From contig DASQEB010000642.1 of NCBI GenBank assembly GCA_035633875.1, positions 1-49,587 on the forward strand: 49,587 nt of DNA, written 5' to 3'. The notes below the pieces were generated by a model, which searched no databases, was not told the origin of the DNA, and saw only the letters and a list, made by a program, of their open reading frames with translations. Positions 13,855-44,395 of the stretch are shown here, one piece after another; position 1 is the stretch's first letter; each line of letters opens with the position of its first letter. The stretch is from Thermoanaerobaculia bacterium. Lineage in GTDB: Bacteria > Acidobacteriota > Thermoanaerobaculia > Multivoradales > UBA5704. A program made the translations under genes and the position numbers.

Positions 13855-13871
13855 GGCGTGCTAAGGGACAT

Positions 13872-15431: not shown

Positions 15432-18400
15432 CTAGAGCTCGAATGAAGCGACGCCGATTTCCTCGTAAAGAACATTCACGAGGCCCTGAGCGTTTCGAAC
15501 CTTCAAGCGATAGCGATTCTCAATCTCGTTGATTGCAGTCTCATCCATATGCTGCATGACGGTGGCCGGCAACCAGGTCGAAACCGGTCTCCAGCCGCCC
15601 GCCATCCGCCGCAGAACCATAACTTCAAGCGGCTCGGCGGGTGACGACCAAGCCATCTGGACGGACTTCCCGTCGGAGGTCCATTCGGCCGAGATCCAGC
15701 TCAGAGGCATAGGAGGCCTTTGGTCGTAAGCTTGTGCCGAGGCAACTCGGGAGGGAGGAGAGGCGTTCACCTCTGCGTCTATCACTACCACTCGGTAGCA
15801 GTAGAGCTGAAGTGGCTCGACCGACGTATCGGTCCAGTGGTCTGCCAGAGGTTCCCCCGCTTCGCTGGACGTCATCAAATGCACCAAAGCCATCCGACGC
15901 ACGTCCTCAGCATCTCTTCGGGTATGTGCACGGTAAACGTGGAGCTCTCGAAGGGCCGGTCCTCTGTCCAAGGCCCATCGGATCGTGATTGTCCTCTCAC
16001 CTCCGAAAATCCCTGTAATCACCGGCGCCGGCGGCTCCACCTTCGGCAGATAAACCGGCGGCGTCGAGGGGCTCAAACCGCTCCGATTGTGGGCGCCGTC
16101 CACGAAGGCGGCACGGTAGAAGTAGCGATTGGTGGCCCTGCCTGGCAGGGTGTCCATGTAGGCGCGGACGGTTGGTTTCGGCGTGTAGTCGGCAGCATCG
16201 TCGGGTAGACGCCGATCCTGGACCTCGGGGTCGGTGTCGTCCAAGGGCTGAAGAGTGATCTGGGTGAATGCATCTTCGTTTCCCGGCAGACCGGCCAGGA
16301 TTCGGAGCGCGGAGTCCGAGAGGGTGCGGTAATCGTCCGGTGATTTGACGTCCACCAAACCGGAATTGCGTGTCTGGCGGATCTCCCAGTCGCGCTCCTT
16401 CAGAGCTTTCCGATCCCCAGCGCCTTCGTTGCCCGACAGGAGGGCCAGGACCTTCCAGGTGTTCTCCGAAAGGGAGTCGTAACCCGCTGGCGAGGTGATC
16501 TTATTCAACTCGGTCACCGCGGCCTGCCGCGTGGCCAAATCCCAACCATCGGGAAAGAGGTCCTGGTGCTTCTCGGGGTCCAGCGCCTCCCGCGTCTCCC
16601 GGATCAGCCAGTCCCGCTGGAACAGGCTGTCGTCCAACGCCCGCAAGACGTGCGTCTTGAGGTGCGGCCGCGGTTTCCACCGGAAGGAGAAGAACGAGCG
16701 GCTGTGGTAGTCCGCCCGGGTTGCCCACAGCCTGCCGCCGGGATAGTCCGCGAGCTCGGGCGGCTCCGGCGGGGTCTGGAGGACGCGGTAGATCGCGGCC
16801 GGCGGGCTCACCCTTCCCTCATTTCCGAAACGGTTCCCCAGAGGCGGGGCGCCCCACTTCGGGTCGTCCCCGGTGTGGATCTTGTCGTCCGCGGCGCTGA
16901 CGCCGATCTGGGCGAAGACGGTGGGACGTTCGAGGGTGGGACGGAATGGCTCGCCTTCTTTCAGGTCCGGCGCGGGGAGGAAGGTTTCGTAGATCCGCAC
17001 GGGCCGGCCGATCGTCCAGGGTGACGAGTTTCCGCCCAGGTCAGGCTCGCCGTCCAGGGTGACGGTGTGGAACTTGGGATCCACCTCTTCGATCCGGTAG
17101 GTCTTGCCGGGACGGGCAGTGTCGCTTGCCAGATACAGGTGGTCGAGCCAGGGCTGGAGGCCCGAGAGATCCACGTCCGGAGGGAAATGGGCAATCCCGC
17201 CGGCGACCGTGACCCCGGCGTTTTTGAAGGTCTCGGCGTCCAGGGGCCGATTCTCGGGGTCCCGGGAGGGCTCGATTCCCTCCTCCACCGCGTCGGCGTA
17301 GAGGACCACGGCGAGGCGCTTCGCCCAGTTGGCCGGCTGCCGGAGGTGGTCAAGGCCGATCTCGCCGGGAAGCTCGTTCAGGCGGCCAGGAATGTAATAG
17401 ATCCGGAACTCCCGGGTGTCCGGCGCCTGATTCATCTGGGACAGAGTCCATTTCCAGCGGACGCGCAGGCCGACGACATCCGGGTTCCTGTCCCGCCACT
17501 TCTCGTAGGGACTGTCCCGTAAAACCCAGCGGTCGAGTGGATCGAGGGCGGCAGCCTCGAGTCCGGTTGGATTCGGTGGAGGGATCTTGTCGAGCAGGGC
17601 CACCGCAAAGGAGTGAATCGGACGGTGGCCCGGGGCATCCTTCCTGTAGTACCACGGGAGTTCTTGGCCTGCCGGCGGATCCCACTGGTACCACTCGGCC
17701 GGCGGCCCCAGCGGGCTGCGGCGGCCGAAGAGGTCCTGACCCAGAACGCGATAGCTGTACCAGCCCTCGGCCAGGCCGGTGTCGATGACGCGGAGGGGAA
17801 CGGATGCGGGGGGCCACTCCGGGGAGCGGCGCGTCTCGCCGGGCGTGAGCGGCGGGGGCGGAGCCGCCGGCTCAGCGAGGACGACCGCCGAGGAGTCCGA
17901 GCCGTCCTCAGGGTCCGGCCGGAGGGGTTTGTACGCGTCGTCCGGAGGTACCTCCGCTGGCTCCTCTCCCGGCTCCTTGATCCCCAGGAAGGCCCGCCGC
18001 GGATAGTAGAGCACGGGGATGTTCGTCTCTTCCGTGGCTCCGGCCGACGGATCGGGAGGCGCTTCCCACCAAAGACCCACGTTGATCTGGGCGTCGTTCA
18101 ACTTGCCGTCCTGGGCACGGGTAGTGGCGCCGGGAAGGGCATAGACGCGGGCTTTTCCGGGCGGCGGCAGGGGAGGCGCGGGCGCGACGGTCTTGCCGAG
18201 GACGAGCCAGGCGTCCACGGCGTTCGCGTCCGGCTGGAAGGCGAGCCAGTCCAGAGCCGTGGAGGCGCTGCCGCCGAGGACGCCGGTGGGGTCGGCCAGG
18301 AGGAGGTAGTCATAGGGGATCCCAGGCTCGGCCGAGGAGTCCAGGAAGTAGAGGCCGAGCATCTGGGCGATGGCCGGGTGGAGGCTCGCCAGCAGGAGGA

Positions 18401-19757
18401 GGTCGAGGCAACGCTGATTCTCCAACCGGAAGGGCTCGGAGTCCGGCGCCGGCCCGAGGGGATCTCCCAGCAGCGTGGGGATGACGCGATTCGCCATGGG
18501 ACCGCCGCCGGGACCTCCCTTCACCAGGATCTCCAGCTGGCCATGGAGATCAGGGAAGGCATCCTCCCATCTCGCGGGCTCGCCGTAGATGATGCGCGAC
18601 AGGGCCAACTCCCGCGCTGCCGCGAAAGTCGCGGGTTTGCCCAGGCAGGGATAGTCCTTCTGCTCGACCGGTAGGCAGAGGGGGTACCGGAAGCCGGGGA
18701 CCTCGCCCCAGCCCCAGGTCTCACCCTGGCGGGTCGGCCAGACGCAGAGATCCAGGAGAGCCCCCTTGCCGGGACCGATCTCCACGGCGGTGAGCTCGTT
18801 GCCCTGCAGCGTGACCGCGACCGCCTCTCCGGCGTTCCCCCGGGCCAGGGCACGGCTCGCGACCGAGGTCCCGGCCAGGACGCGGATCTCGATCTCCGCC
18901 CCTTCCTCCGCCGTTCCGCCTGCCGGGCATTCCCAGCAGATCTCGTGGAGCAGGGCGGGATCAACGGTGGAGCTCGCCAGGACGACCCGGGCGAGAGCCT
19001 TGCCGGTCAGCGTCACGGTGCCGGTTTGGAGGGCCAGGGGCTGGAATTGCCGGATGTCGGCTCTCGCGCCGTCCCCCTCGAAGGCCGCGATCGTCAGCTC
19101 TCCCCGATTGGTGAGGAGCAGATCGATGCGGGTGGCCGGGCAGGGGAGATCAATTTCGAGCTGGCGGCTGGTCTGGAGCCCTGGGGGCGTGCCGTTCCAC
19201 TGCTCGATGAGCGTGTGGATCAGCGGCGGGCTCACCGGAGGGATTTCTGTCTGGAAGACGGCCCCCTTTGTCTCCCGGCCCCCCATGGTCGCGCCGAGCG
19301 GCTCGCGACGGAAATCGGCACATGTCCGGACGGTCCGGGGTCCTTCGGAGCGGAGGCCCACTCGGACGTCCACCCGCCGGACCTGAACGCCCGGCGTGAG
19401 ATCGAAACGCAGGGGCGCACCCTGATCAAGATCGACCCCGACCGTGCCAGACGGCGAAAATTCGTCCGTAAAGATCAGGCGCCGGGTGCTGCTCAGGAGG
19501 CCGAGGCGCGTCTCCAGCCCGGTACCGCGGGACGATCCGGGACGCAAGCCGCCGAGAAACGGGCTCAGGCAAAGCGGACGCCGCGGCTGGCTCTCCCGCC
19601 GGAAGAGATAGAACCCGTGCCAGGGGAACCCCCGCTCTGGGGCGAAGATCCACCGGCAGTGGAGGCCGTTGCGCAGGCGCGGGTGATCCTCGTCCGGCGG
19701 CTTGTCGTCCAGGATGCCCAGGACGAGCATCGCCAGATCGTCGGTCTGGAAACTCAT
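15432..19757 (-). CDS. Large multidomain protein (1441 aa), function unknown, with C-terminal FN3-like modules
   Basis: 4326-nt open frame. The N-terminus MSFQTDDLAMLVLGILDD has no signal peptide. Residues ~140-275 form a module homologous to residues ~1130-1265 of the 2625-aa protein. There are internal FN3-like endings (EGWYSYRVLGQDLFGRRSP). Two C-terminal FN3-like modules are visible (ITIRWALDRG...LYCYRVVVIDAEVNASPPS and SVQMAWSSPAEPLEVMVLRR...YRLKVRNAQG). Confidence 0.85.
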   Translation of the reverse strand: MSFQTDDLAMLVLGILDDKPPDEDHPRLRNGLHCRWIFAPERGFPWHGFYLFRRESQPRRPLCLSPFLGGLRPGSSRGTGLETRLGLLSSTRRLIFTDEFSPSGTVGVDLDQGAPLRFDLTPGVQVRRVDVRVGLRSEGPRTVRTCADFRREPLGATMGGRETKGAVFQTEIPPVSPPLIHTLIEQWNGTPPGLQTSRQLEIDLPCPATRIDLLLTNRGELTIAAFEGDGARADIRQFQPLALQTGTVTLTGKALARVVLASSTVDPALLHEICWECPAGGTAEEGAEIEIRVLAGTSVASRALARGNAGEAVAVTLQGNELTAVEIGPGKGALLDLCVWPTRQGETWGWGEVPGFRYPLCLPVEQKDYPCLGKPATFAAARELALSRIIYGEPARWEDAFPDLHGQLEILVKGGPGGGPMANRVIPTLLGDPLGPAPDSEPFRLENQRCLDLLLLASLHPAIAQMLGLYFLDSSAEPGIPYDYLLLADPTGVLGGSASTALDWLAFQPDANAVDAWLVLGKTVAPAPPLPPPGKARVYALPGATTRAQDGKLNDAQINVGLWWEAPPDPSAGATEETNIPVLYYPRRAFLGIKEPGEEPAEVPPDDAYKPLRPDPEDGSDSSAVVLAEPAAPPPPLTPGETRRSPEWPPASVPLRVIDTGLAEGWYSYRVLGQDLFGRRSPLGPPAEWYQWDPPAGQELPWYYRKDAPGHRPIHSFAVALLDKIPPPNPTGLEAAALDPLDRWVLRDSPYEKWRDRNPDVVGLRVRWKWTLSQMNQAPDTREFRIYYIPGRLNELPGEIGLDHLRQPANWAKRLAVVLYADAVEEGIEPSRDPENRPLDAETFKNAGVTVAGGIAHFPPDVDLSGLQPWLDHLYLASDTARPGKTYRIEEVDPKFHTVTLDGEPDLGGNSSPWTIGRPVRIYETFLPAPDLKEGEPFRPTLERPTVFAQIGVSAADDKIHTGDDPKWGAPPLGNRFGNEGRVSPPAAIYRVLQTPPEPPELADYPGGRLWATRADYHSRSFFSFRWKPRPHLKTHVLRALDDSLFQRDWLIRETREALDPEKHQDLFPDGWDLATRQAAVTELNKITSPAGYDSLSENTWKVLALLSGNEGAGDRKALKERDWEIRQTRNSGLVDVKSPDDYRTLSDSALRILAGLPGNEDAFTQITLQPLDDTDPEVQDRRLPDDAADYTPKPTVRAYMDTLPGRATNRYFYRAAFVDGAHNRSGLSPSTPPVYLPKVEPPAPVITGIFGGERTITIRWALDRGPALRELHVYRAHTRRDAEDVRRMALVHLMTSSEAGEPLADHWTDTSVEPLQLYCYRVVVIDAEVNASPPSRVASAQAYDQRPPMPLSWISAEWTSDGKSVQMAWSSPAEPLEVMVLRRMAGGWRPVSTWLPATVMQHMDETAINEIENRYRLKVRNAQGLVNVLYEEIGVASFEL

Positions 19758-19887
19758 GGCCCCCCTTGCGCCGGAGAGGAACCCTCCACTCCGGCCCTGA
19801 TCGGGTCGCGCTAACGGCTTTTGGCCAGGGTACGCTGGATGGGGCCGTTGATCAACCTTATCTATTCAACCGAATATTGAGCAGTGC

Positions 19888-21027: not shown

Positions 21028-22560
21028 TTACAACTCTTTGGCGGCTGGCCGCAGCCGAGGGCGGGGTGTGTCTTCCCAGGCAAAAACGCTCGCTCCGCTC
21101 ATCGCACTCGCCAGAGCGTCCCGCTTCGCCGGCCAATCGTTGATCGGCCGGGGCAGGCGTTCGGCAGCGATCACGAGCTCCAGGGCTTCGCGCAATCCTT
21201 CCGAGAGCTCGGCGGCTGGGAAGAGGGCGCGGCGGGCGGCCTCCTCCTCCACCCGCTCGGGCTCGCAGCCCCAGAGCCGGGCGGCCAGGGCACGGAGGTC
21301 GTCCCACGCGACACGGGCGCCGTCCGCCCAGCGGCGGAAACAGCGGTGAACCTCCTCGGCGGCGGCCGCTGCTTCAGCCGCCGCTGGGAAGACGGGATTG
21401 AAGCAGAAGGTTCGGACGAAGCGCCAGGCGGGCAGGGAGTCGAGCTGCTCGGCGAGGAGGCGGAGCAGGGCTTCCTCATCGTCCTTGCCGTCCAACTCAA
21501 GGGTTTGAGCCAAGGTCCGGAGGGCGCCCTTCACCCCGCCCAGGACGCGGCAGGCCTCGGCGGCGAGGGCTTCAAAGCGGGCTTCTTCGCGATACTCGGG
21601 CTCCGGGAGGAAGGCGCGGCCGAAGCGCTCCTCGTGGCAGCGCCGGAGGCTCGCGGCGATCTCCTCCTCGCGGCCGGGGGGCGGGGCGAGCCCCCGATGG
21701 GCAGCGGCCGAGACGAGGAGCGAGCGGATCCGGACCTGCCGCGCGAAGGCGGGGGCCTCCGGGTGGAAGAGCTGGGCCATGCGCCAGGCGCTCAGGAGGC
21801 GGGCGCTTTCCGGGCCGGCCGGGGGGCACCGCAGGGAGACCTCCTTGTAGAAGCTGACGTAGTCGCTCACCACGCGCTCCCGGGGACACGGGGCAGGCCC
21901 CCCGTCCAGGGCCAGCTCCAGGGCCTGGCGCGCGTCCTCCTGCTTGACGCTCTCCGTGGCCAGGATGCGGGCGAGCTCTCCGGTTGCAGGCTTCCCCAAG
22001 TGGAGACGGGCCAACTCGACGACGCGGGCAGGGTGGCGGTCGAGGAAGGAGAGGGCCTTCAAATCCGCGATCAGGCGCCTGGCCGCCTCCGGCTCCGCGG
22101 CTCCCGAAGCCTGGAGGCGCGCAAGTGCGTGCCGCACCTCGACGAGGGCCAGGGTGACGGGCCGGTAGCCGTGCTCGGCTGGCGCATGGAGGAGGGCGAC
22201 TTCGTCGTCGCCGTCGAGGGCGCCCGTCCGGTACCAATCGAAGACGGTCCCCACGCCGATCATGCCGAAGGGCGCGAGCTCCACGGCCCGCAGGGCTCCG
22301 AGGCTCGCCGCTCCGATCACCCGGACGCCGGCGTCCAGAGCGTAGAGAAGCTCTTTGTGGGGCACGGACGGGACGGTGAAGTAGTAGCCGTCCAGAAGGA
22401 TCATGGTCCTTGGATGATGGGCGAGGGCGGCGAGGACGTCCCCGCGCTGGACGGGCGGACGCACATCGCAGGCGGCGAGGAGGGAGCGCCACGCGGGGTC
22501 CGGATCCCGGGGCAGGGTCGGCCCGGCGAAGACCACGACTTGCGAGGGACTTTCACCCAT
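21028..22560 (-). CDS. tfuA: TfuA-like protein with an unusual ~300-aa C-terminal extension
   Basis: From the internal Met the sequence reads MGESPSQVVVFAGPTLPRD...VRPPVQRGDVLAAL...ILLDGYYFTVPSVPHKELLYALDAGVRVIGAASLGALRAVEL..GMIGVGTVFDWY, which is the TfuA signature. The ATG overlaps the YcaO stop (ATGGGTGA). The first 60 codons of the track ORF are an Arg/Ser/Pro-rich artefact. Confidence 0.85.
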   Translation of the reverse strand: MGESPSQVVVFAGPTLPRDPDPAWRSLLAACDVRPPVQRGDVLAALAHHPRTMILLDGYYFTVPSVPHKELLYALDAGVRVIGAASLGALRAVELAPFGMIGVGTVFDWYRTGALDGDDEVALLHAPAEHGYRPVTLALVEVRHALARLQASGAAEPEAARRLIADLKALSFLDRHPARVVELARLHLGKPATGELARILATESVKQEDARQALELALDGGPAPCPRERVVSDYVSFYKEVSLRCPPAGPESARLLSAWRMAQLFHPEAPAFARQVRIRSLLVSAAAHRGLAPPPGREEEIAASLRRCHEERFGRAFLPEPEYREEARFEALAAEACRVLGGVKGALRTLAQTLELDGKDDEEALLRLLAEQLDSLPAWRFVRTFCFNPVFPAAAEAAAAAEEVHRCFRRWADGARVAWDDLRALAARLWGCEPERVEEEAARRALFPAAELSEGLREALELVIAAERLPRPINDWPAKRDALASAMSGASVFAWEDTPRPRLRPAAKEL

Positions 22561-23692
22561 GGGACTTCTCCTTGAAGCCGGGGACGAAGACCCGCGCCAC
22601 CGGCACCCCGACTTCCGGGCGGCTGAGGTCGACCCACCAGGTCTCCAGCCCGTGTCCCGCCAGGATCTCGACGACCCGGTCGAGATCGGAGGCGACGCTC
22701 GCGGTCGAGAGGTCCGGCAGGTCGGCGAAGCAGCGGACACCTTCGGGCTCCTGGAGCTCTTCGAAGAGCCGGTGCGCCGCCTCCCCGGCTCCGAGGAGGG
22801 GCAGGTCGTCCCGGGCTCCCGAGATGTAGGTCAGGCGGGACTGGGCTGCCTCGGTGAGCGCCCGCGACAGGGCCACGGCCGGCTCCGGGTGACAGCCCGA
22901 GCCCCACCAGACGTTGGCGATGTCCGGAGCGGCGATCTCCGCCTGGAGGACGGGGATGCCGGCCTCCCATGTGACGTCATAGAGGGCGAGCTTGAAGCCC
23001 GCGGCATGGATCTTTTCGAGGGACTCGCGGAGCCAGGGAGCCTCCACCGAGTCTTCCCGCAAAGGCACCTTCCGCCAGGGCTCTCGCGCGGCGAGGCGGA
23101 CGCCGTGGCGCTCGACGAGCTCGCACACGCCGTGGAGGACCGCCTCCTCCAGGCAATTGCCCGAGGCGAGGCCGTTCGACGTCCGGCTGAACAGCCGCAG
23201 CGGCAGGGCCGGGGGCTCGGTGAAGTCCAGCTCCAGCATCCAGCGCGGCAGCCAGCCGTCCCGGCCTCCCCGCCAGCAGCGGGCGCGGACCCACGGCATG
23301 GGCAGGGCGAAGGCTTCGGGAGGGAGGAAGACCCAGCGCAGGGAGGTGAGCGGCACGGGGTTGTCGTACCGCATCTCCTGCGGGGAGAGCGTCACCTGGG
23401 GAAGGTGGCCGAGGTCCTCGGCGTGCCAGAGCTCCAGCGCCTCCATGACGGCGCTCGCCCGGGCGGCAGCCGGCGTGGCCCCCTTGCCCTGGGAGACGGA
23501 GAGGTTCCGGCTGGCGGGCCGCACCGCCTGCCAGACCGGGATGCCGATCCGATCGAGCCCGGTCACGTCGGCCACCCGGGTGACCCCGGCCCGGGGCAGG
23601 ACGTCCCGGACGCCGTCCAGCGTCTCCTCGGGACGTCGGATGCGGTGGGTACCGATCCGGAACCTCTTGGGGGAGGTCTCAGAAGGAATCAG
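22553..23692 (-). CDS. ycaO: YcaO-domain protein (TfuA-associated type). Start codon uncertain.
   Basis: ...KRFRIGTHRIRRPEETLDGVRDVLPRAGVTRVADVTGLDRIGIPVWQAVRPASRNLSVSQGKGATPAAARASAVMEALELWHAE...NGLASGNCLEEAVLHGVCELVERH. There is no in-frame ATG, GTG or TTG near the expected N-terminus. The nearest options are CTG (23692) and ATT (23689), which overlap the upstream stop. Confidence 0.8.
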   Translation of the reverse strand: MIPSETSPKRFRIGTHRIRRPEETLDGVRDVLPRAGVTRVADVTGLDRIGIPVWQAVRPASRNLSVSQGKGATPAAARASAVMEALELWHAEDLGHLPQVTLSPQEMRYDNPVPLTSLRWVFLPPEAFALPMPWVRARCWRGGRDGWLPRWMLELDFTEPPALPLRLFSRTSNGLASGNCLEEAVLHGVCELVERHGVRLAAREPWRKVPLREDSVEAPWLRESLEKIHAAGFKLALYDVTWEAGIPVLQAEIAAPDIANVWWGSGCHPEPAVALSRALTEAAQSRLTYISGARDDLPLLGAGEAAHRLFEELQEPEGVRCFADLPDLSTASVASDLDRVVEILAGHGLETWWVDLSRPEVGVPVARVFVPGFKEKSHG

Positions 23693-27004: not shown

Positions 27005-27045
27005 TCGTGTAGACTCTCCGCGGGCGTGGAACGTAAGAAACTGCG

Positions 27046-28341
27046 ATGAGCGAGCTCGGCTGGAAGTACCTGACCCCGGACGACAAGGCCGCGATTCTGC
27101 GGGGGATCGAGGACGGTGTCGCCTATGGCGGCCCGTATCACGTGGAGTTCCACCCCGCGGACCGCTGCAACATCGACTGCTTCTTTTGCTCGACCGCATC
27201 CCTCCGTGGCACGGACGAGATCCCCATGCCCCGCTTCGAGGAGCTCCTGGGCGAGCTCAAGGAGGCCGGCACCCGGGCCATCCGCCTCTCCGGCGGCGGC
27301 GAGCCCCTGTTCCACCGGAACATCAAGCCCTTCCTCCAGGCCATCGGGACGAGCGGCATCCCCATCGAGAACCTCACCACGAACGCCGTCCTCCTGCGGC
27401 CGGAGATCGTGGAGCTCCTGCTGCCCGTCTGCGATCAGGTCACCATCAGCCTGAACACCGGGGACGAAGAGACCTATGGCTCGATGATGAAGACCAACCC
27501 TCGCAACTTCCAGCGGGTGATCGACAACGTCAAACACCTGGTCTCCGAGAAGCGCAAGCGCCGGCAGAAGAACCCCCTGGTGAATCTCCAGTTCCTCGTC
27601 TGGAAGGAGAATTACAAGGGAATCCCCGAGATGTACCGCCTTGCCCGGGAGATCGGCGTCGACACGATCCTGTTCAACGGCCTCTCCTTCCTCACCCCCG
27701 ACCAGCAGATGACGCCGGCCGAGACCGAGGAGATGATGGGACTTTACGAGGAGATCGTCCTCGTCGACGGCTACCGCAAGATCTCCTGCATCAACAGCTT
27801 CGAGCAGGACCTCTCGGAACACCTGGAAGCCATGCACAAGCGGGTCGGCGCCCGCTACGGCCGGATGTCCCTTCCCCGGCGGGCCGCGAGGCTCCTCCTG
27901 CGCGACGATTTCACCCTCGCCGAGAAGGTGGATCACATCAAGCGGCGCCTGGAGAGGCGGAAGATGGGCAGGGCCAACGAGGGTCTCGACAGCTACTGCC
28001 TGATCGGCTGGCACTCGATGCTCGTCCGCACCACCGGCATGGTGGCGCCCTGCTGCATCCTGCAGGGCAAGGAACTGGGCAACGTCTACAAGCAATCCGT
28101 CCGGGACGTCTGGCACGGCGAAGCCTTTCAGCAGTTCCGGCGCGAGCTCTCCCGCATCCTGCGCGAGAAGGAGTCCTGGCAGCACGATCCCGCGACCGAC
28201 CGCACCGTCGACGGCATGTGCGGCGCCAAGGGCGCCTGCCCCATCGCCACCTTCTACTACTGGCCGGACAGCCGCTTCCTGCGCTCGTTCAACGAGAGCG
28301 TGCGGCGGCTGGACGAGTTGGAACGCGGCGCGGCGGCGTAA
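27046..28341 (+). CDS. Radical SAM protein with a SPASM-type C-terminal Cys cluster
   Basis: CNIDCFFC (CxxxCxxC) at residues ~41-48, GGGEPL, and C-terminal ...CLIGWHSMLVRTTGMVAPCCILQGKELGNVYKQSVRDVWHGEAFQQFR...MCGAKGACP. It starts 41 nt downstream of the kinase stop. Confidence 0.9.
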   Translation: MSELGWKYLTPDDKAAILRGIEDGVAYGGPYHVEFHPADRCNIDCFFCSTASLRGTDEIPMPRFEELLGELKEAGTRAIRLSGGGEPLFHRNIKPFLQAIGTSGIPIENLTTNAVLLRPEIVELLLPVCDQVTISLNTGDEETYGSMMKTNPRNFQRVIDNVKHLVSEKRKRRQKNPLVNLQFLVWKENYKGIPEMYRLAREIGVDTILFNGLSFLTPDQQMTPAETEEMMGLYEEIVLVDGYRKISCINSFEQDLSEHLEAMHKRVGARYGRMSLPRRAARLLLRDDFTLAEKVDHIKRRLERRKMGRANEGLDSYCLIGWHSMLVRTTGMVAPCCILQGKELGNVYKQSVRDVWHGEAFQQFRRELSRILREKESWQHDPATDRTVDGMCGAKGACPIATFYYWPDSRFLRSFNESVRRLDELERGAAA

Positions 28342-35269: not shown

Positions 35270-35299
35270 TTGACTTACGCCAAATTTACGCTTTATATT
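35270..35299 (+). promoter_or_regulatory. Candidate sigma70-type promoter for imuA-imuB (TTGACT-N18-TATATT)
   Basis: TTGACT at 35270-35275 and TATATT at 35294-35299. The spacer and flanks carry three direct TTACG repeats (35275, 35286, 35299). The predicted TSS lies within a few nt of the first ATG (35307), so the mRNA could be leaderless, or the real start could be the ATG at 35322 (MARLS). Confidence 0.35.
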
Positions 35300-35306
35300 T
35301 ACGTCC

Positions 35307-36203
35307 ATGCGAGGCGGGACGATGGCGCGGCTCTCCACTGTACACCACGAGGACCTGGCGGCGGATTCCGGCCTCACGCCCGACGCCGGCTCCGCTCTCC
35401 ACCGGCTTCGCGCCTCCCTCCCCGAGTCCTTCCGCTCGCGCATCCGGAGCGCCCGCGAGCTGGTGCGGGAGGTCCGGGAGGTGCAAGAGGAGGAGGAGCC
35501 TCTCGCCACTGCGGTTCCCGCACTGGACCGCCTGCTCGAAGGAGGGCTCCCCCGCGGACAGCTCGTGGAGCTGATCGGCGCCCGGTCGAGCGGGCGCTTC
35601 TCCGCACTGCTCGCGGTGCTCGCCGCGGCGACCGGCGTGGGCGAGGCCGCGGCCCTCGTGGATCTCGGGGACGGGCTCGATCCGGAGACCGCCGCCACGA
35701 TGGGCGTGGATCTGGAGCGCCTGCTCTGGGTGCGGCCCGCCAAGCTCAAGGATGCGCTCGCCGCGACCGAGATGCTCCTCGCCAGCGGCTTCCCCCTGGT
35801 GGTCCTCGATCTCGGGCCGCCGCCCGTGCGCGGCGGGCGCGGAGCGGAAGCGGCTTGGCTGCGGCTGGCCCGCACCGCCCGGGCCCATGGCGCGGCCCTG
35901 CTGGTGGGGAGCCCCTACCGGGTGAGCGGCACCGCCTCCGCCGTGGTGCTGAAGGCGGGCCGCGCCCGGGCCGCCTGGCTCGGTGGAGACGAGGGCTCGC
36001 CCCGGCTCCTCGGCGGCGTCGCCTCCCGGATCACCCTGGAGAAATGCCGGCGCCGGCTTCCGGGGCAGACGGAGGAACTGGCTCTCGCCCCGAAGGAGGC
36101 CCCTCTGCCCGCGGCCCCGCCGCCGGCCCGCCCGCTTCGCCCTGCTCGGAGGGAAGAGGCTCCGGTCGTCCCCCTCGTCCTGCGCCGGGCCGCGGCGGGC
36201 TGA
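35307..36203 (+). CDS. imuA: ImuA-like RecA-fold inducible mutagenesis protein
   Basis: 298 aa, ...ATAVPALDRLLEGGLPRGQLVELIGARSSGRFSALLAVLAAATGVGEAAALVDLGDGLDPETAATMGVDLERLLWVRP..., a degenerate RecA/SulA-like core. It lies 3 nt upstream of imuB. Confidence 0.75.
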   Translation: MRGGTMARLSTVHHEDLAADSGLTPDAGSALHRLRASLPESFRSRIRSARELVREVREVQEEEEPLATAVPALDRLLEGGLPRGQLVELIGARSSGRFSALLAVLAAATGVGEAAALVDLGDGLDPETAATMGVDLERLLWVRPAKLKDALAATEMLLASGFPLVVLDLGPPPVRGGRGAEAAWLRLARTARAHGAALLVGSPYRVSGTASAVVLKAGRARAAWLGGDEGSPRLLGGVASRITLEKCRRRLPGQTEELALAPKEAPLPAAPPPARPLRPARREEAPVVPLVLRRAAAG

Positions 36204-36206
36204 TCC

Positions 36207-37760
36207 ATGGGCTCACCGCGCATCGCCTGCGTCAGCCTGCCGCTGTTCCCCCTGGCCGCCCGGCTGCGCAGCGAGCCGGAGCTCATCCGGGAAGCTCTCG
36301 TCATCGTCGAAGGCAATGGCAATGCCGCCCGGGTGGTCGCCGCCACCCGGCTGGCGCGCAACGCCGGGATCCGGCCGGGGGCCACCCTCCCCCAGGCGCG
36401 GGCCCTCTGCCCCAAGCTCGTCGCCCGTCCCCGGGACGAGGAGTGCGAACGGGCGGCCCAGGAGGCGCTCTTCGAGGTGGCCGAGACGTTCTCCCCCCGG
36501 GTGGAGGACGCCGGCGAAGGGACCGTCTTCCTGGACGTGGACGGCATCGAGCGCCACTTCCGCGGCCCCACCCCCGAGCTGGACCTGGGCCGCGCCCTCC
36601 TCGCCGCCGCCGAGGCCGCGGGCCTGCCGGCCCGGGCCGGGATTGCGTCGAGCAAGCTCGCGGCCCAGGTCGCCGCCGGGCTTCCGGACTCGCCGGTGAT
36701 CGTCCCCGTCGGGGAGGAGGCCGCCTTCCTGGCCCCGCTGCCCCTCGCTCGCCTCACTCCCGAGGTGGACCTCGCCTCCACCTTGGAGCGCTGGGGCGTA
36801 CGCTCCATCGGCGACTTCGCCCGCCTGCCCAAATCCCGGGTGGCGAGCCGGCTGGGAACCACCGGCCGGGAGTTGCATACGACGGCCCGGGGGATCGATC
36901 CCCGCCCTCTGATCCCCCGCGAGCCGCCCCCCGCCTTCCATGAGGGGATGAGCCTCGAATGGCCCCTGGTCTCGCTCGAGCCCTTCCTTTTCGTGGGACG
37001 CGCGGCCCTGGACCGGCTCTGCCAGCGCCTGGAGTCCCGGGGGCTCGCCTGCGTCCGGCTCGGCCTGGAGCTCCGCCTGGAGCCGGACGGCCACCAGACG
37101 CGGTCCATCGACCTGCCGGCTCCCACCCGGGATGTGAAAACCCTCCTCACCCTGGTCCGCCTGGATCTGGAAGCCCGCCCCCCGGGCGCGCCCGTCGCCG
37201 GCTTCACCTTCGTGGCCCATCCCGACCGCCCGCGGCAGGCCCAGCTCTCCCTCTACGGCCCGCCGGCCCTTTCGCCGGACAAGCTGGCCACCACCCTCGC
37301 CCGCCTCTTCGCCCTCCTCGGCCCCGACCGGGTCGGCTCCCCCCGTCCCGTGGACGGCCACAGCCCGGAGCGCTTCGCCCTGGTCGAGTACGCGCCCCCT
37401 CCTCCGCCGGAGGTCCGCCGCGAGCCCCGCACCGGCCGCGGCCTCCTCGCCGTCCGCGTCCTCCGGCCGCCGCTGGAGCTGGAGGTGATCACCGAAGAAG
37501 CCAGAGCGGAGGATCAGGATTCCGCCGCGCTCCTGCCCATCGAGGTCCGCACTTTGGTCAGCGGGACGAGCGATAAACGCCTCCGCATCGAAGGGGCGGT
37601 CAAGGTCGCTTCAGGGCCCTGGGGGCTCGAAGAGGAGTGGTGGACCGAGGACCCGGCAGGTCGCGACTACTGGGACGTGGAGATCGCCGGGGCCGGCATC
37701 TACCGGATCTACCGCGACCGGGCCAGCGGGGGGTGGTACGCGGACGGGATCTACGACTGA
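36207..37760 (+). CDS. imuB: ImuB, Y-family DNA polymerase-like mutagenesis protein
   Basis: [36 protein letters not shown]...[24 protein letters not shown]...[12 protein letters not shown], the classic ImuB N-terminus that lacks the catalytic acidic triad context. 517 aa. Confidence 0.85.
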
Positions 37761-38683
37761 GCCGCCCGCCCGCCGCGCGTCGCCCGCGGCGGCACCACCA
37801 GCACGCTGCATGGCGCATGGCGCACCACGTCGGCCGCGACGCTCCCGATCACCATGCGGTCGAAGCCTCCCAGGCCGTGCGTGCCGAGGACCACGAGGTC
37901 CGCCCCCGCCTCCGCCAGCTCGGCTTCGATCTCCTCCCGGGTGTTGCCCGTGCGCACCTTGCGGCGCACGCTCCCGGCGAGCTCGCCCGCGGTCAGCTCG
38001 ACGAAGCGGCCCAGCTCTTCCAGGGCGAAGCGGTCGATCTGCTCGGGCGTGAACTGAGGGGCCACCTGACGCTGGAGAACGCTCAGCACGAAGAGGGCTT
38101 CGATCTCGGGAAGGGAACCCTTCCCCATTGCGCGGAGGACTTGGATCCCTTGCTGGAAGGCCTCTCCCGACAGAGGCGAGAGGTCGACCGGGGCCACCAC
38201 CCGCTGCGGGGGGATCGTCAGCCCACCGCGCACCACCAGCACCGGGCAATGCGCCTTGCGGACGACGCGCTCCGCCGTGGAGCCGAGGAGATGGGTCATG
38301 CGGCCGTCCGCCCGGTGGCCGACCACCAGGAGGTCCGCGTCCATCCGCTCGGCCAGATCGGAGAGGGCACGGTGGGAAGGGCCGTTCTCGAGGCTCCACT
38401 CGCCGTCGAGCCCCGCCCGCTTCGCCTGCTCTTCCAGGGCGGCCCGCAGCCGGTCCTCCTCGCCTCGCAGATACTCGTCGCTCCCGAGCATGGGCCAGAG
38501 ACTGCTGCCGACGCCGATGGGCGGACCGAACGCATGGGCCAGGCAAGCCTTCGCCCCGGTCGCGCGCGCCACCTCAACGCCCGCTCTCACCACCTCTCCG
38601 CTGCTCTCGTCCAGCGCGGTTCCGATCAGGACGGTACGGATCTCGGACACGGGGCTCCCCTCCTTGGCGGGGAGTATAGACAC
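37751..38683 (-). CDS. Tandem universal stress protein (two UspA domains)
   Basis: 310 aa. Each half ends with ...[19 protein letters not shown] / [19 protein letters not shown]. The 3' end overlaps the convergent imuB stop by 10 nt. Confidence 0.9.
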
Positions 38684-38701
38684 CTCCGCTGTCCTTGGAT
38701 C

Positions 38702-39241
38702 TCAGAAGCGCCAGACCAGCCCAGCGTTGATGCCGAAGCCGCCGAGTTGGATGTCCACGTCGTCGTCCACGTCAGGGTCGTCGTCCAGGTCCCCGCGCAC
38801 CGAAGCCTCCATGTTGCGGTAGATCCCCTCGACCATGAAGCCAAGACCGCCAGGGCCGGTGAAATCGGTCCCCAGGACCGCGTAGTAGCCGACCTCGTCG
38901 TCGATGTCCCCTTCGGTCGTGTCGAGCAGGTAATAGCCGGCGCCGCCGCCGAGGTAGGGGCTGAAGCGAGGGGTGTCCGCGAACCGGAAGGCGAGGCCCG
39001 CCTCCAGCGGGATCGCGCTCACCTCGAAGTCGAGGCTCTCGGGCTCGGTATCCGCCGTCACATCGCTGAAATAGGTGCCCCGCAGCTCGACGATCCCGAA
39101 CCGCAGCTTGGCCCCGACCCCCAGAGCCTGGTCCGCATCCTCGGTGTCCCAGAACGCGCCGTATGCGCCGATGTCGGCCGCCATGGCCGGGCTCGCCAGG
39201 AGCGCCAGGACCGCCATCGTCGACAGAATTATCTTCTTCAT
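38702..39241 (-). CDS. Small outer-membrane beta-barrel protein (OmpW/OmpA-like porin family)
   Basis: [21 protein letters not shown]|AD signal peptide, alternating beta-strand pattern and a C-terminal ...NAGLVWRF (terminal Phe). GGAGG lies 7 nt before the ATG at 39241. Confidence 0.8.
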
Positions 39242-39379
39242 GGTGTACCTCCGTTCCATGTCTCGCAACCGATCCTTGACGGAGTTGCGACGTCAGCGGG
39301 CGAAAAGGGCTCCGCGACGCATCGGAGACGGAGCTGCAAGGCCCATTCCACACATTTTCTGGGAGAATCGTGGACTTGG

Positions 39380-39856
39380 ATGCTGAAGATCGTTCAAGCC
39401 GCCACAGACGAGGACCTCCAAAGCGCCCGCCTCCTCTTCGAGGAGTACGCCGCCTCCCTCGGCTTCGACCTTGGATTCCAGGGCTTCGCAGGTGAGCTCG
39501 CGGGCCTCCCGGGCGACTACGCCCCGCCTGAGGGGAGGCTCCTCCTCGCCGTCCAGGACGGCCGTCTTGCCGGCTGTGTGGCGCTACGGAGGCTGGAGGA
39601 AGGGATCTGCGAGATGAAGAGGCTCTACGTTCGCCCGGACTTCCGCGGCCTGGGGCTGGGCCGCTCCCTGGCGGAGACCGTGATCCGGGAAGCCCGGTCC
39701 CTCGGGTACGCCCGTATGCGGCTGGACACCGTCCCCTCCATGGCGACGGCGCGGGCTCTCTACGCCGCTCTGGGATTCCGCGAGATCCCGCCGTACCGCT
39801 ACAACCCGATCCCCGGGACCGAGTTCCTGGAGCTGGCCCTCGAGCCCTCCTCTTAG
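39380..39856 (+). CDS. GNAT-family N-acetyltransferase
   Basis: [23 protein letters not shown]...[53 protein letters not shown]...ALYAALGF. Only the last 158 codons of the 739-aa track ORF look real. Confidence 0.9.
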
Positions 39857-40218
39857 CTCGGCCGGAGGCCGCTCACCGGGCCGTCCGTCTTGCGCTTTGC
39901 CACGAACGTCTCCAGGAAGGCGCGGTCCGCCGGGCTGATCCGCAGGAACTCCACTCCGACCTGGTGCTCGGTCGGGCTCTTGGAGATCTCGTAGACGACG
40001 CGGCTGTCCGTCTTGAGCACCCGCCCCTGGAGCGCGATCGAAAGCTCCATCAGCGACCCGAAGCCGAGGGATTCCTCGCTGACGAACATGCAGCCGCCCG
40101 GGCCGATGACGCGGGTGCGGGCGAACTCCTCGAAGGGCAGGGTCCCCAGCAGGCGGACCATCACGGCGTGCTCAGCCTGGATGCGGGGGAAACGGCGAGC
40201 TTTGGCGGACTGCGTCAT
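39853..40218 (-). CDS. PilZ-domain protein (putative c-di-GMP receptor)
   Basis: [23 protein letters not shown]...[23 protein letters not shown]...RVVYE...VGVEF, i.e. the RxxxR and D/NxSxxG-type PilZ motifs. GGAG lies upstream of the ATG at 40218. Confidence 0.85.
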
Positions 40219-40439
40219 CGGATCTCCTTCCGTACGTCTGGGACGATCGACTCTGATTCTAGCCCAACGAATAGCCAATCATCAATAAGCACCTCCCGCC
40301 ATCGTACGCCGGAAGGCGGCGAGATCCGGTGCTCAGGACTGTCGGAGACGACCTTGATGACCAGATCGGGCGGGTGGCCCTCCGGGAGGGCGTCGCAGCT
40401 CGGCGGGGCTTCTTCCGTTCCAGTTGCCTGGGATCCAGC

Positions 40440-40985
40440 CGATCTTGAAAACGCCCCGTGAAGCAGACGAGGGGACGCTTCCACCCCGCAGGCCCGCCAT
40501 CGAGTGGGCAAGCCCGCGTTTCAAGCTCTCCGACGCGGCCCCAGTCTTTACGGCCGAGATTCAAGCCCGCATCGCACCCGGCCAGGCTTCCATGCACCGG
40601 GGCAAGCTCGAACCGCAGCTTTTCAAGCCGGCTCCGCGTCCCTTCAAGCTTGAATGCAGCCGTTCAAGTGGGAAACGGCTCCACGCAAGCTTGAATCCAG
40701 CCCGTCAAGCGAGTAACGCCGCCCTTCAACCTTGCGGGCTCCGCATGCAAGCTTGAAGACGCGCGCGCAAGCTTGCGCCTGTGCATTCAAGCCTGAGTGC
40801 CAGCCCTCCAACTTTGCTCCACGCCGTTTCAAACTTGAATGGCGCCCGTCGAGCTTGTGCCGGCTCCCTTCAAGCTTGCGGCCGCCCCTTCAAGATTGAA
40901 GCGGCGGGTTCAAGCCTGAAGGGAGGTCGTTTGACTTTGGACGGCTGGATTCAAGCTTGAACGCGGACGTTTCAAGCCGGACGAG
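40440..40985. repeat. Non-coding tandem array of ~21-26 degenerate 20-21-bp units with the palindromic core TTCAAGCTTGAA
   Basis: Perfect 12-mers occur at 40643-40654 and 40950-40961. There are six AAGCTT sites within ~310 bp (40646, 40687, 40749, 40769, 40872, 40953). Successive units begin at about 40603, 40624, 40645, 40665, 40686, 40706, 40727, 40748, 40768, 40788, 40809, 40830, 40851, 40871, 40891, 40911, 40933, 40952 and 40973. Unit length alternates between 19 and 22 bp, and TGA/TAA-type stops occur in all frames, so this is not a coding repeat. Confidence 0.8.
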
Positions 40986-41069
40986 ATGATCGCGGACGGC
41001 TTGGTAGAGATCGGACGGGACACGATCGAGGTCACGCCCGCCGGCCGGCTCCTGGTGGGAACGGTCTGA
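40986..41069 (+). pseudogene. Possible relic of a HemN/HemW-type coproporphyrinogen oxidase C-terminal tail
   Basis: The frame reads (FKLERGRFKPDE)MIADGLVEIGRDTIEVTPAGRLLVGTV*. This resembles the ...L..L..DGL.E.....I.LT..GR.L.. tail of the HemN_C domain. It lies immediately upstream of hemY. No radical-SAM body is present upstream. Confidence 0.3.
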
Positions 41070-41102
41070 GGACAGCGCCTCACGCCGCGGTATCCTTCAG
41101 CC

Positions 41103-42449
41103 ATGGATTCAGGCAGCAGGCTGGACGTCGCGGTGGTGGGCGGGGGGATCTCCGGCTTGACCACGGCGTTCCATCTCGCCCGGGGGGGGATGCGGGTTGC
41201 CGTCCTCGAAGCCTCCGAGCGCGTGGGCGGGGCCATCGAGACCTTCACGGATGGCCCCTGGCGCTTCGAGATGGGACCGAACACGGTCCTCGAGAACAAC
41301 CCCGCGGTGGGCCGGCTGATCGGCGCCTCGGGGCTCGACGGCGAGAAGATCACCGCGGCTCCGAGTGCCAGACGGCGGTATCTCTATAAGAGTGGGGAGT
41401 TGATCGCGCTGCCCCGCGGACCAGGCGGCTTCCTCACCACCCCTCTCGTTCCCGCGAGCGCCAAGCTCCGCCTCCTCCGCGAGCCCTGGATCGGCCGGCC
41501 GGACAACGGTATGGAAGAGAGCATCGCCCAGTTCGTCCGCCGCCGCCTGGGTCAGGCGTTCCTGGATTACGCCGTGGGCCCGTTCGTCTCCGGGGTCTAT
41601 GCGGGCGACCCCGAGCGGCTCTCCGTGGAGTGGGCCGTCCCCAAGATCTACGCCCTGGAGAAAGAGCATGGCAGCCTCTTCCGGGGCGCTCTCGCCCGCC
41701 GCAAGGGGCCGGCCCCGGGTGGCGCCATGATCTCCTTCCGGGAGGGTCTCCAAGAGCTGCCCCGTAGGTTGGCGAAGGAGATCGGGAATGTACGGACCGG
41801 CGTCTCCGCCTCGAAGGTCGTGCGCTCCGGGGACGGCTTCCGCGTCGAGACGAGCGCCGGCCCGATCCAGGCGCAGCAGGTCGTCCTCGCCGTCCCGGCC
41901 GACGTGGCGGCCCGGCTGCTGGACGAGGCCACGGCCGGCGCGAGCCGCCTCTTCGAGGAGATCCCCTACGCGCCCGTGGCCATCGTCTCCCTGGGCTGGC
42001 GCCGGTCGGCCGTGAAGCACCCCCTCGCCGGCTTCGGCTTCCTCTCTCCCCGCAAGGAGGGGCTGCACACCCTGGGCTGCCTCTTCCCCTCGGAGATTTT
42101 CCCCGGCCGCGCCCCGGAAGGCCACGTTGCCCTCGCGGCCTTCGTCGGCGGCCGGACCGATCCAGCAATCGTCGGCTGGACCGACGACCGGCTCCTCTCC
42201 ACGGTTCTCTCCGAGCTCCACGGTCCTCTGGGCCTGTCCGGCGAGCCCACCTTCGGCAAGGTGCGCCGCTGGAGCCGGGCCATCCCCCAGTACGAGGTCG
42301 GCCACGGCCGCTTCGTCGAGAGGGTGAGGGAGATCGAGGGTGCCCTCCCCGGCCTGCGGATCGGCGGGAACTTCGTGGGCGGGGTCTCCGTCCCGGACTG
42401 CATCAGGAACGGGACGGCCTTGGCGGAGGAGGTGCTGGGGGTTTCCTGA
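41103..42449 (+). CDS. hemY: Protoporphyrinogen/coproporphyrinogen III oxidase (HemY/CgoX family, FAD-dependent)
   Basis: MDSGSRLDVAVVGGGISGLTTAFHLARGGMRVAVLEASERVGGAI...GPN...YAGDPERLS...IPQYEVGH...LRIGGNFVGGVSVPDCIRNG. Confidence 0.9.
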   Translation: MDSGSRLDVAVVGGGISGLTTAFHLARGGMRVAVLEASERVGGAIETFTDGPWRFEMGPNTVLENNPAVGRLIGASGLDGEKITAAPSARRRYLYKSGELIALPRGPGGFLTTPLVPASAKLRLLREPWIGRPDNGMEESIAQFVRRRLGQAFLDYAVGPFVSGVYAGDPERLSVEWAVPKIYALEKEHGSLFRGALARRKGPAPGGAMISFREGLQELPRRLAKEIGNVRTGVSASKVVRSGDGFRVETSAGPIQAQQVVLAVPADVAARLLDEATAGASRLFEEIPYAPVAIVSLGWRRSAVKHPLAGFGFLSPRKEGLHTLGCLFPSEIFPGRAPEGHVALAAFVGGRTDPAIVGWTDDRLLSTVLSELHGPLGLSGEPTFGKVRRWSRAIPQYEVGHGRFVERVREIEGALPGLRIGGNFVGGVSVPDCIRNGTALAEEVLGVS

Positions 42450-43754: not shown

Positions 43755-43762
43755 AGCCGCCC

Positions 43763-43965
43763 TCAGCTCCGCGCTCGCGAAGCCAGCCCCTCCAGGAGCC
43801 GAATCAGGATTCCAGGATCGACAGGTTTGGTGAGGTGCTCGTCGAAGCCCGCTTCGCGGGCCCGCCGCTTCCTGTCGCAGGGTTCCATACCCAGACGGCC
43901 TGACTGCTCGCCTCCGCCAAGGCCCGGTACCTTGCCTCGCTGTTGGCCAGGCGGGAGCCCTCCAT
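43763..43965 (-). pseudogene. Collapsed remnant of a PAS sensor kinase / receiver gene
   Basis: One frame gives MEGSRLANSEARYRALAEASSQAVWVWNPATG, a typical start of a PAS domain. About 30 codons later the +1 frame gives ...DRKRRAREAGFDEHLTKPVDPGILIRLLEGLASRARS*, a typical receiver-domain C-terminus. No kinase core lies between them. Confidence 0.45.
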
Positions 43966-43982
43966 CGGGTTGTTGCGGAATT

Positions 43983-44324: not shown

Positions 44325-44395
44325 GGAGCTCTCCTTTCCGTCGCCTCTGCAAGCTTGCCACACCTGGGCAGATACAATGCATCCCCGGACCTGGA

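Follow-up and report, generated by a model that had tools for sequence, protein, structure and literature searches.

The stretch of DNA analysed here, which we call the window, is 49,587 nt from a Thermoanaerobaculia bacterium and carries a dense tandem array of short palindromes between a pilZ gene and hemY. The pilZ gene (39853..40218, minus strand) encodes a single-domain protein matching Pfam PilZ and is divergent from the array. Its exact protein is also present in L326, an independent Logan assembly from another sample. There is a promoter-like site for pilZ, TTGATG-18-TAGAAT, at 40256..40285 on the minus strand. The pilZ-proximal ~110 bp (to ~40330) are kept in relatives in which pilZ has different neighbours (peptidase M1, DUF6755), and homology with L329, L450, L451 and L452 is lost near 40330. 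Beyond this point, about 100 bp of lineage-specific, non-repeat DNA (40335..40433, no strand) separate the conserved pilZ promoter block from the array. The end of homology places the array outside the promoter block and makes the site a rearrangement junction. On the other side of the array come a hemN pseudogene stub, a 17-nt stretch shared with a relative and then hemY (41103..42449, plus strand), assigned as a hemY-type protoporphyrinogen oxidase from its match to Pfam Amino_oxidase (8.9e-63) and the source names of its homologues. The names of the organisms from which the HemY and PilZ homologues come point to a Thermoanaerobaculia-like acidobacterium.

The main array (40516..40987, no strand) is made up of 23 units of 20-21 bp (one of 19) with the core consensus TTCAAGCTTGAA and spacers of 8-9 nt, as defined by the unit chain, 12-mer statistics and autocorrelation. 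It is preceded by a decayed left end (40434..40515, no strand) in which about four positions with weak cores remain in register (4-11 bits in the position weight matrix (PWM) chain, at 20-21 bp spacing); units left of ~40516 are almost unrecognisable. The original prediction, made from the sequence alone, was of ~21-26 palindrome-cored units of 20-21 bp, and this is borne out by the 23 clear and approximately four decayed units. A chain built with the PWM and dynamic programming runs through 27 consecutive positions, the first at 40434 and the last at 40967, and all 26 spacings between them are 19, 20 or 21 bp (mean 20.5; mean 20.56 in the strong part, 40597-40967). The predicted recurrence of 19-22 bp therefore holds as a phased repeat, with a measured range of 19-21 bp only. 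The core recurs every 20.5 bp, or about two helical turns, so the proposed geometry with all palindromes on one face of the DNA holds as well.

A 12-mer scan of the window found perfect cores at 40643..40654 and 40950-40961. With up to three mismatches to TTCAAGCTTGAA there are 27 sites, 14 of them between 40560 and 40971, where they are 20-21 bp or multiples thereof apart. With up to two mismatches there are 11 sites, nine of them inside the array, against 0.51 +/- 0.78 expected from 100 dinucleotide shuffles, none of which reached 11. In a lag autocorrelation of the whole window the array region alone stands out (lag 41, z=6.5; lag 62, z=6.2; lag 20, z=5.0). The periodicity on which the prediction depended is thus well above background. 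Tandem Repeats Finder (TRF) with default-like scoring, proposed as a check, did see a repeat, but only 2.3 copies at 40852-40898; it detects little of the array because the units are degenerate (~63% identical).

There are two to six stop codons in every frame of the array on both strands, and units of 20 and 21 bp break any frame. The array is therefore non-coding, in agreement with the original prediction. L326 matches window positions 36856-41558 at 99.45% identity and contains the array without an indel, so it is not an assembly artefact. The copy number is the same in these two strains (0.55% divergence). Taken together, the data show a real, chromosomal, non-coding, phase-locked palindromic array of ~23-27 units. 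Its head-to-tail non-coding repeats also fall within the 10-100 bp range of minisatellites.

Each unit consists of a 12-bp palindromic core (TTCAAG|CTTGAA) and a GC-rich spacer. Ten of the twelve core positions agree with the consensus at frequencies of 0.64-0.93 and the final two at 0.47 and 0.59; by half-site, T1, T2, C3, A4, A5 and G6 lie at 0.68-0.93 (7.7 bits) and C7 to A12 at 0.47-0.84 (4.9 bits). The best-kept positions are TCAAG|CTTGA. The spacer columns are close to background (0.30-0.68), even when read in a 41-nt register. Of the GC.GCCC.T pattern suggested for the spacers the GC-richness stands, but there is almost no consensus beyond a C at -2/-1 in 59-68% of units. AT-rich cores have thus persisted within a 68% GC genome whereas the spacers have been randomised, and by a rough estimate the spacers have diverged at least 4-5 times further than the cores. 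Part of the array shows a 41-nt super-period, each spacer being roughly the reverse complement of the one before it (TGCAGCCG with ACGGCTCCA; GCCGCCCC with GCGGCGGG). Long inverted repeats are centred on cores (30-nt arms at 83%, 22-nt arms at 86%), and 41-nt direct families are also present.

The two arms of the core do not covary. Paired cells make up 65.9% compared with 68.2% in column shuffles, the covariation score is 0.109 compared with 0.149, and there are two compensatory double changes compared with 4.1 in shuffles. Six other arrays behave likewise, so that compensatory double changes are never enriched in the seven arrays counted. Mismatches of the G:T type (10) and the A:C type (12) show no bias towards an RNA strand. 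The palindrome therefore belongs to the unit consensus and is not repaired arm against arm, which makes both quasi-palindrome correction and hairpins of RNA or single-stranded DNA under selection less likely.

The hemN stub (40995..41071, plus strand) comprises the last 24 conserved codons of the gene (DGLVEIGRDTIEVTPAGRLLVGTV) and a stop codon, and the last repeat unit is in frame with it. Positions 40995-41066 match the C-terminus of the intact HemN of L264 (tblastn, 71% identity, E=2e-4), and the same search gave no further hemN trace in the window. There is an intact hemN immediately upstream of hemY in L261, L264, L266 and L267, and one adjoining pilZ in L255. From this comparison of loci, hemN has been lost here and the array sits in its place, between divergent pilZ and hemY. 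The original prediction had allowed for relatives carrying an intact gene at this position, with the motifs as its decayed codons. Intact hemN genes and a 24-codon stub were indeed found, but only the stub is hemN; the repeats have no similarity to the gene and cannot be its decayed codons.

The 17 nt directly before the hemY ATG (CGCGGTATCCTTCAGCC; 41086..41102, plus strand) are the only intergenic stretch that aligns locally with L003; the arrays of the two loci do not align. The stretch is a remnant of a FeoA-like small ORF (PGSEIRLLQRYPSFVVEVGETTLALDADVAGDIVV), which is intact directly upstream of hemY in L002 (1-142), L327 (2-157) and L328 (3-158) and reduced to this remnant in the window and L003. 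It contains a TATCCT 6 nt before the ATG, which is possibly the -10 element of a leaderless hemY. Three independent assemblies break inside the FeoA-like ORF within ~20 nt of one another, and several independent assemblies end ~40-170 bp upstream of hemY, a region where contigs may break in part because of such arrays.

Within 3 kb of the hemN stub lies another scar of gene loss. In the window (43757-43980, minus strand) a PAS/HisKA/receiver hybrid kinase of 777 aa, intact in L003 (5094-7427), is reduced to residues ~26-54 and 747-776 in two frames, with ~2.1 kb lost, and this scar has no array. The idea that the arrays mark deletion scars was rejected on this ground.

The neighbourhood of the array encodes PilZ, GNAT, OMP, Usp, HemY, a PLD-type cardiolipin synthase (Cls) downstream of hemY, and an ArsC-like protein. 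Upstream of the arsC-like gene, the window (44348-44362) and L002 (3700) each have a single palindrome, GCAAGCTTGyCACAC, that is missing there in L003 and L329 (present in two of four). Elsewhere in the window there are two giant ORFs and genes for PadR, MacB/FtsX, NMO, TfuA, a Ser/Thr kinase, rSAM-SPASM, SDR, PQQ and HlyD proteins, imuA-like and imuB products and a Na/H exchanger. The giant ORFs (5977-13860 and 15432-19865, minus strand) comprise one of 2627 aa with weak DUF6603 and 3-keto-disaccharide-hydrolase matches and one of 1477 aa without a Pfam match. The TfuA-like gene (21028-22830, 600 aa) and the radical-SAM/SPASM gene (27037-28341) lie a few kb apart and possibly form a peptide-modification locus. 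At 35274-37760 a RecA-like (imuA-type) gene is followed by an IMS-family (imuB-type) gene, a partial SOS mutagenesis cassette without an adjacent dnaE2. Judged by gene content, this is an ordinary chromosome with housekeeping genes and with synteny to many chromosomal contigs. There are no par, rep, cas or Y1-transposase genes among the annotated genes of the window, and neither a sigma-70-like promoter nor an intrinsic terminator was found within the array.

The array has counterparts in relatives. Among HemY-anchored metagenome loci and loci retrieved by exact-protein look-ups there are about ten further arrays that share this architecture and differ in their cores; they lie between divergent, tandem and convergent genes. 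Three or four arrays lie directly upstream of hemY. Those of the window, L003 (2028-2364; 16 units of period 21, core GGGCAGCGGCTGCCC) and L256 (863-1190; eight units of period 41 with a 41-nt long palindrome, between the PilZ orthologue and hemY) adjoin the gene, and a partial array of period ~21-22 at the start of the L290 contig (1-110) lies just upstream of a FeoA-like ORF that precedes hemY. Downstream of hemY there are 15 units of period 21 in both L257 (12808-13123) and L259 (12707-13020). L286 has two arrays of period 21 on the same contig, L286a (8847-9120; 13 units, core CGGATGAGGTCATCCG) ~0.9 kb upstream of hemY and L286b (~19600-19880; ~8 units, GCCGGC-type core). In L303, 28 units of period 20.4 (GGCAAGCyTGCCGCGCC) occupy 6682-7252, and in L004 about six units of period 21 (TCCCTyCGrGGGA; 11171-11300, L004b) lie between a Zn-peptidase gene and an ArsC gene. 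Several frames on both strands run open through the strict 21-bp arrays of relatives, which gene callers could mistake for genes.

A census with one threshold over 358 kb of the clade gave nine arrays of period 21 or 41 and four of period 9, together with a few extra arrays with multiple-of-3 periods that are presumed to be coding. The same census showed no period-21/41 peak in 488 kb of other taxa. Judged by their sequences, the arrays thus form a class across Thermoanaerobaculia-like relatives, with a period of 20.4-21 or 41 bp, 6-28 units and palindromic, largely locus-specific cores. The original prediction knew of no described element with this motif, which remains true of the motif itself, but the array is not a one-off.

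Some sequence links between arrays do exist. In cross-PWM comparisons the window array is linked to that of L303 (z=5.8) and loosely to those of L259, L256, L286a and L003. The core CAAGCTTG is common to the window array and the L303 array, which is at another locus, and upstream of hemY in L004 it occurs twice, at a spacing of exactly 21 bp. Array cores have no copies outside their own arrays in ~0.9 Mb of loci. A CAAGCTTG regulon was considered and rejected, as the 8-mer occurs outside arrays seven times in 641 kb, about background. Two similarities matched by eye, AACGGCTGC and CTCGAACGGCTGG (the latter in hemN), were not above chance and were dropped.

A tree of HemY groups the window with L003 and L002 in one clade and places L254-L256 in another, and the order pilZ, 41-bp-period array, hemY is found in two separate HemY clades. 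By the tree and their patchy presence, the arrays are gained or lost at roughly genus-level depth and recur at the pilZ-hemY intergenic site. In L257 there are runs of identical neighbouring units, which points to recent local duplication.

Several other features were seen around these loci. A second repeat class in the clade, (CAAGGACAn)x5-6, short loop, (nTGTCCTTG)x5-6, forms long hairpins of 9-bp units in L002 (1510-1620), L327 (1520-1620), L303 (1800-1945), L286 (5430-5600) and L259 (~9820-9930). The same sequence occurs at several loci and in several genomes, often right after the hemY stop; there are none in the window. About 300 bp from the L259 21-bp array there is an Acido-Lenti-1 RNA (12356-12401, minus strand; 52.6 bits, gathering score 37). 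Toxin-antitoxin modules cluster around the locus in relatives, with PIN and RHH_1 genes after hemY in L329 and L002, and a MazF/PemK-like toxin ORF (9553-9930) lies between the array and hemY in L286. Upstream of hemY in L254 (~90-330) there is a pair of ~55-nt inverted repeats (CCCCTCACCCCCGGCCCCTCTCCC...) ~100 bp apart that looks MITE- or REPIN-like.

Wider searches gave little of the same kind. The array had no blastn match in plasmid and phage collections. The pattern TTCAAG-N14/15-TTCAAG-N14/15-TTCAAG, searched in genome and viral contigs, returned mostly (TTCAAGN)n heptamer repeats of AT-richer genomes among the matches listed, together with a few short 21-bp arrays (3-7 units) in other GC-rich bacteria, where the 21-bp spacing is imposed by the pattern. 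In viral contigs, CAAGCTTG-N12/13-CAAGCTTG returned at least 120 single pairs, which is roughly chance by our own, uncomputed estimate, and no array like that of the window was among the matches listed. One IMG/VR contig (L399, 256-370) has five 22-bp tandem units, each with an 18-bp palindrome (AGACACAAGCYTGTGTCT). These have the look of an operator or iteron array on a viral contig; the context is unrelated to that of the window array and the design is similar.

The constraint pattern of the window array is the one that phased double-stranded DNA sites would show: the cores are kept, the spacers are free, the spacing is held at 19-21 bp, and there are neither compensatory arm changes nor a G:U bias. 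These features of the sequence favour an array that acts, if at all, as double-stranded DNA. We lean, with less than even confidence, towards a row of phased sites that a protein binds cooperatively upstream of the promoters of hemY and pilZ. The array would have originated from a dyad-symmetric module of ~41 bp (core, spacer, core, reverse-complement spacer) that was amplified in tandem. Its cores would form an in-phase row of dyad sites on one face, which a dimeric protein could coat cooperatively. The resulting nucleoprotein filament would have a repressive or architectural role and would sit immediately upstream of the promoter of hemY, which is probably leaderless, and beyond that of pilZ. 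Cooperatively bound, phased tandem sites are an established design, as in sopC, parC, iterons and the HspR operators, where three dimers occupy 70 bp.

A number of observations weigh against this reading. The left half-site is better preserved than the right (115 compared with 94 matches of 138, p=0.005), a polarity not expected of a symmetric dimer site. Between the window and L326, 6 of 472 array sites differ (1.27%) compared with 4 of 775 four-fold sites (0.52%), which is not a significant difference (Fisher p=0.19), and five of the six array differences are in cores, each toggling between consensus and non-consensus. This concentration is the opposite of what purifying selection on the cores predicts. 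The array is also dispensable, because close relatives lack it: L329 (85% HemY identity) has pilZ, 211 bp and hemY without an array, other HemY relatives at 85-90% have none, and the loci with the most similar PilZ (95-96%) have no array and different genes around pilZ. There is no small DNA-binding gene adjoining the array and no candidate binding protein. PilZ itself was rejected as the binder, since it is an ordinary single-domain PilZ and in L003 there is an array but no pilZ. Arrays on the same contig can differ in core (L286a and L286b; the L004 pair and L004b), which makes a dedicated protein for each array implausible as a general rule, and the L303 array lies between convergent genes. 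The original prediction had likened the array to a cooperative repressor array, and the phased geometry stands. The existence of about ten arrays with other cores, however, weakens the case for a single dedicated repressor or centromere protein and strengthens that for a minisatellite.

The strongest alternative is a functionless, self-propagating minisatellite, in which hairpin-nucleated replication slippage and template switching would amplify short palindromes into arrays with a ~21-bp unit, and core-seeded conversion or template switching, rather than selection, would keep the cores similar. Such a neutral, self-homogenising array is nearly as likely as the protein-binding reading. Every non-coding tandem array in the 358 kb of the clade has a period of 9 or 20.4-21/41 bp, whatever its sequence, with no such peak in the other taxa. 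The sequences are largely locus-specific and not dispersed, the arrays occupy all kinds of intergenic region, the convergent one included, and close relatives differ in their presence. Consistent with this alternative, the window array lies at a deletion or rearrangement junction and its left end is decayed, the runs of identical units in L257 indicate recent local duplication, and the between-strain rate is not below neutral, with changes concentrated in the cores and always between consensus and non-consensus. Core-restricted conversion or template switching could in this way mimic core conservation. On the other hand, a frozen neutral array should lose cores and spacers alike, whereas here the AT-rich cores persist. 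Unit lengths are confined to 19-21 bp with no larger indels, copy number is equal in the two strains, and there is no excess of compensatory double changes of the kind that quasi-palindrome correction would give. Additionally, 12-bp cores between diverged spacers are short for homologous conversion.

An array of RNA or single-stranded DNA hairpins, acting as a multi-hairpin small RNA or protein sponge, a stabiliser of an untranslated region (UTR) or a terminator stack, is improbable. Both strands of the window array do fold far better than dinucleotide shuffles (z=-8.1 and -7.2), as do other palindromic arrays (-5 to -11), and the long inverted repeats run across neighbouring units. However, palindrome-rich repeats score high in folding automatically, the minimum free energy (MFE) of the whole array is dominated by arbitrary long-range pairing, and the L303 array, which shares the core, folds no better than shuffles (z=-2.0 and -0.5). 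Pairing between the spacers on either side of a core exceeds that in shuffles only marginally (44.9 compared with 42.5%; covariation 0.248 compared with 0.205, reached in 52 of 500 shuffles) and not significantly. The cores, as described above, have neither covariation nor an asymmetry between G:U and A:C, and the palindrome has no loop (AAG|CTT). There is no promoter or terminator consensus inside the array, and no Rfam covariance model matched in the window at its gathering score, the sub-threshold matches being chance ones.

Another reading is a REP/BIME-like cluster, in which small palindromes mobilised by a RAYT-type transposase have accumulated in tandem, their orientation alternating. 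Like such clusters, the array has a 20-21 bp palindromic intergenic unit with partly alternating spacer orientation (S, reverse-complement S), and tandem REP clusters are described in the literature. This origin is nevertheless slightly less probable still than hairpins, as the core with up to one mismatch is absent from the other 49 kb of the window, array cores do not stray from their own arrays in the loci searched, different cores occur on one contig, the unit consensus contains no GTAG or CGTC tag, and there is no Y1 transposase (Y1_Tnp) among the annotated window genes.

It is very unlikely that the array is the amplified operator of a known type of regulator. The closest candidate is HspR, whose operator HAIR (consensus CTTGAGT-N7-ACTCAAG, that is, CTTGA-N11-TCAAG) is bound cooperatively by several dimers. 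The best-kept array positions are exactly TCAAG|CTTGA, and there are three exact spacer-centred matches to CTTGA-N10/11-TCAAG in the array. Compared with the full consensus, the outer 5 nt of each arm match, while no unit comes within three mismatches of the whole 7-N7-7 pattern. Against this reading, the gap between half-sites varies between N10 and N11, which is bad for a fixed dimer, and the inner positions (GT/AC) are unmatched. There is no chaperone gene or hspR nearby and no HAIR-like site elsewhere in the loci examined, and the other arrays have unrelated cores.

Finally, two further readings have, taken together, an equally slight chance: that the array is a true centromere or set of iterons of a plasmid or chromid, or that it is decayed coding sequence, whether of hemN or of a gene with heptad repeats. 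The geometry is like that of sopC, parC and iterons and the hemN stub adjoins the array in frame with the last unit, but the context is that of a housekeeping chromosome with conserved synteny, par and rep genes and plasmid or phage similarity were not found, the stops and the 20/21-bp units break any frame, and the HemN match is confined to the stub.

A wider proposal, which we offer only tentatively, is that Thermoanaerobaculia-like Acidobacteria carry an undescribed class of chromosomal 'two-turn' arrays, with dozens per genome, 6-28 palindrome-cored units, a period of ~20.5-21 or 41 bp and largely locus-specific cores. These would be either landing pads for cooperative or architectural DNA-binding proteins that shape promoters or the nucleoid, or traces of a new mechanism, specific to the clade, that generates repeats with a fixed ~21-bp unit. 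Should the arrays serve as platforms for loading proteins, they would be the chromosomal equivalent of plasmid centromere or operator arrays in a poorly studied, largely uncultured phylum, and would offer a handle on the rewiring of hemY (aerobic haem synthesis) after the loss of hemN. If they are mutational by-products, the clade-wide ~21-bp unit and the 9-bp class would point to an unusual slippage or template-switch process reshaping intergenic DNA at rearrangement junctions.

Full-text searches of the literature turned up neither an account of arrays of this kind in Thermoanaerobaculia nor any case of the motif serving as a binding site. Compared with known systems, the array is a phased tandem palindromic array or minisatellite that lies outside every named family. 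It is not a clustered regularly interspaced short palindromic repeat (CRISPR) locus, as had been concluded from unit length: a 12-bp core and an 8-9-nt spacer total 20-21 bp, whereas CRISPR repeats are ~23-50 bp with spacers of similar or greater length, and there is no cas domain among the window genes. With minisatellites and variable-number tandem repeats (VNTRs), such as the MIRU-type intergenic repeats, it shares its non-coding, intergenic, tandem and lineage-specific nature and its presence or absence among relatives. It is unlike VNTRs in its palindromic core, free spacers, clade-wide ~21-bp period and lack of a copy-number difference between two strains. The REP and BIME elements of Proteobacteria are likewise extragenic palindromic units (REP, 20-40 bp) with regular spacing, often in tandem and in alternating orientation. 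REPs, however, are dispersed high-copy families with a GTAG/CGTC tag and a RAYT gene, while the array has no dispersal, tag or RAYT in the window and related loci.

The HspR operator resembles the array in its CTTGA...TCAAG arms 10-11 nt apart, and in HAIR each dimer takes ~21-23 bp and tiling is cooperative. HAIR has one nucleating site and two flanking dimers at heat-shock promoters, in contrast with at least 23 tiled sites at hemY, where the inner arm bases differ. Iterons (17-22-bp repeats with ~21-22-bp phasing) have in common with the array a period of about two turns, many copies, a core kept over its spacer, and polarity. They are direct, non-palindromic repeats that usually number 3-9 and accompany a rep gene and an origin; the array has none of these features. 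The identity with plasmid centromeres or iterons that had been entertained fails on the same absence of par and rep genes, on the ordinary chromosomal context and on the lack of a plasmid or phage match. sopC and the type II parC sites of pSK41 and R1 adjoin a par operon on a plasmid and serve one cognate protein; the array is chromosomal, has no par gene, and its relatives' cores differ. In design these centromeres nevertheless come close. They too consist of short head-to-tail units at a single locus, with an inverted repeat inside a longer repeat and whole-turn phasing, and they are bound cooperatively as double-stranded DNA; the array is likened to them by geometry only. The sopC centromere has 12 repeats of 43 bp, and the array, read in pairs of units, has 11-13 repeats of ~41 bp (2 x 20.5).

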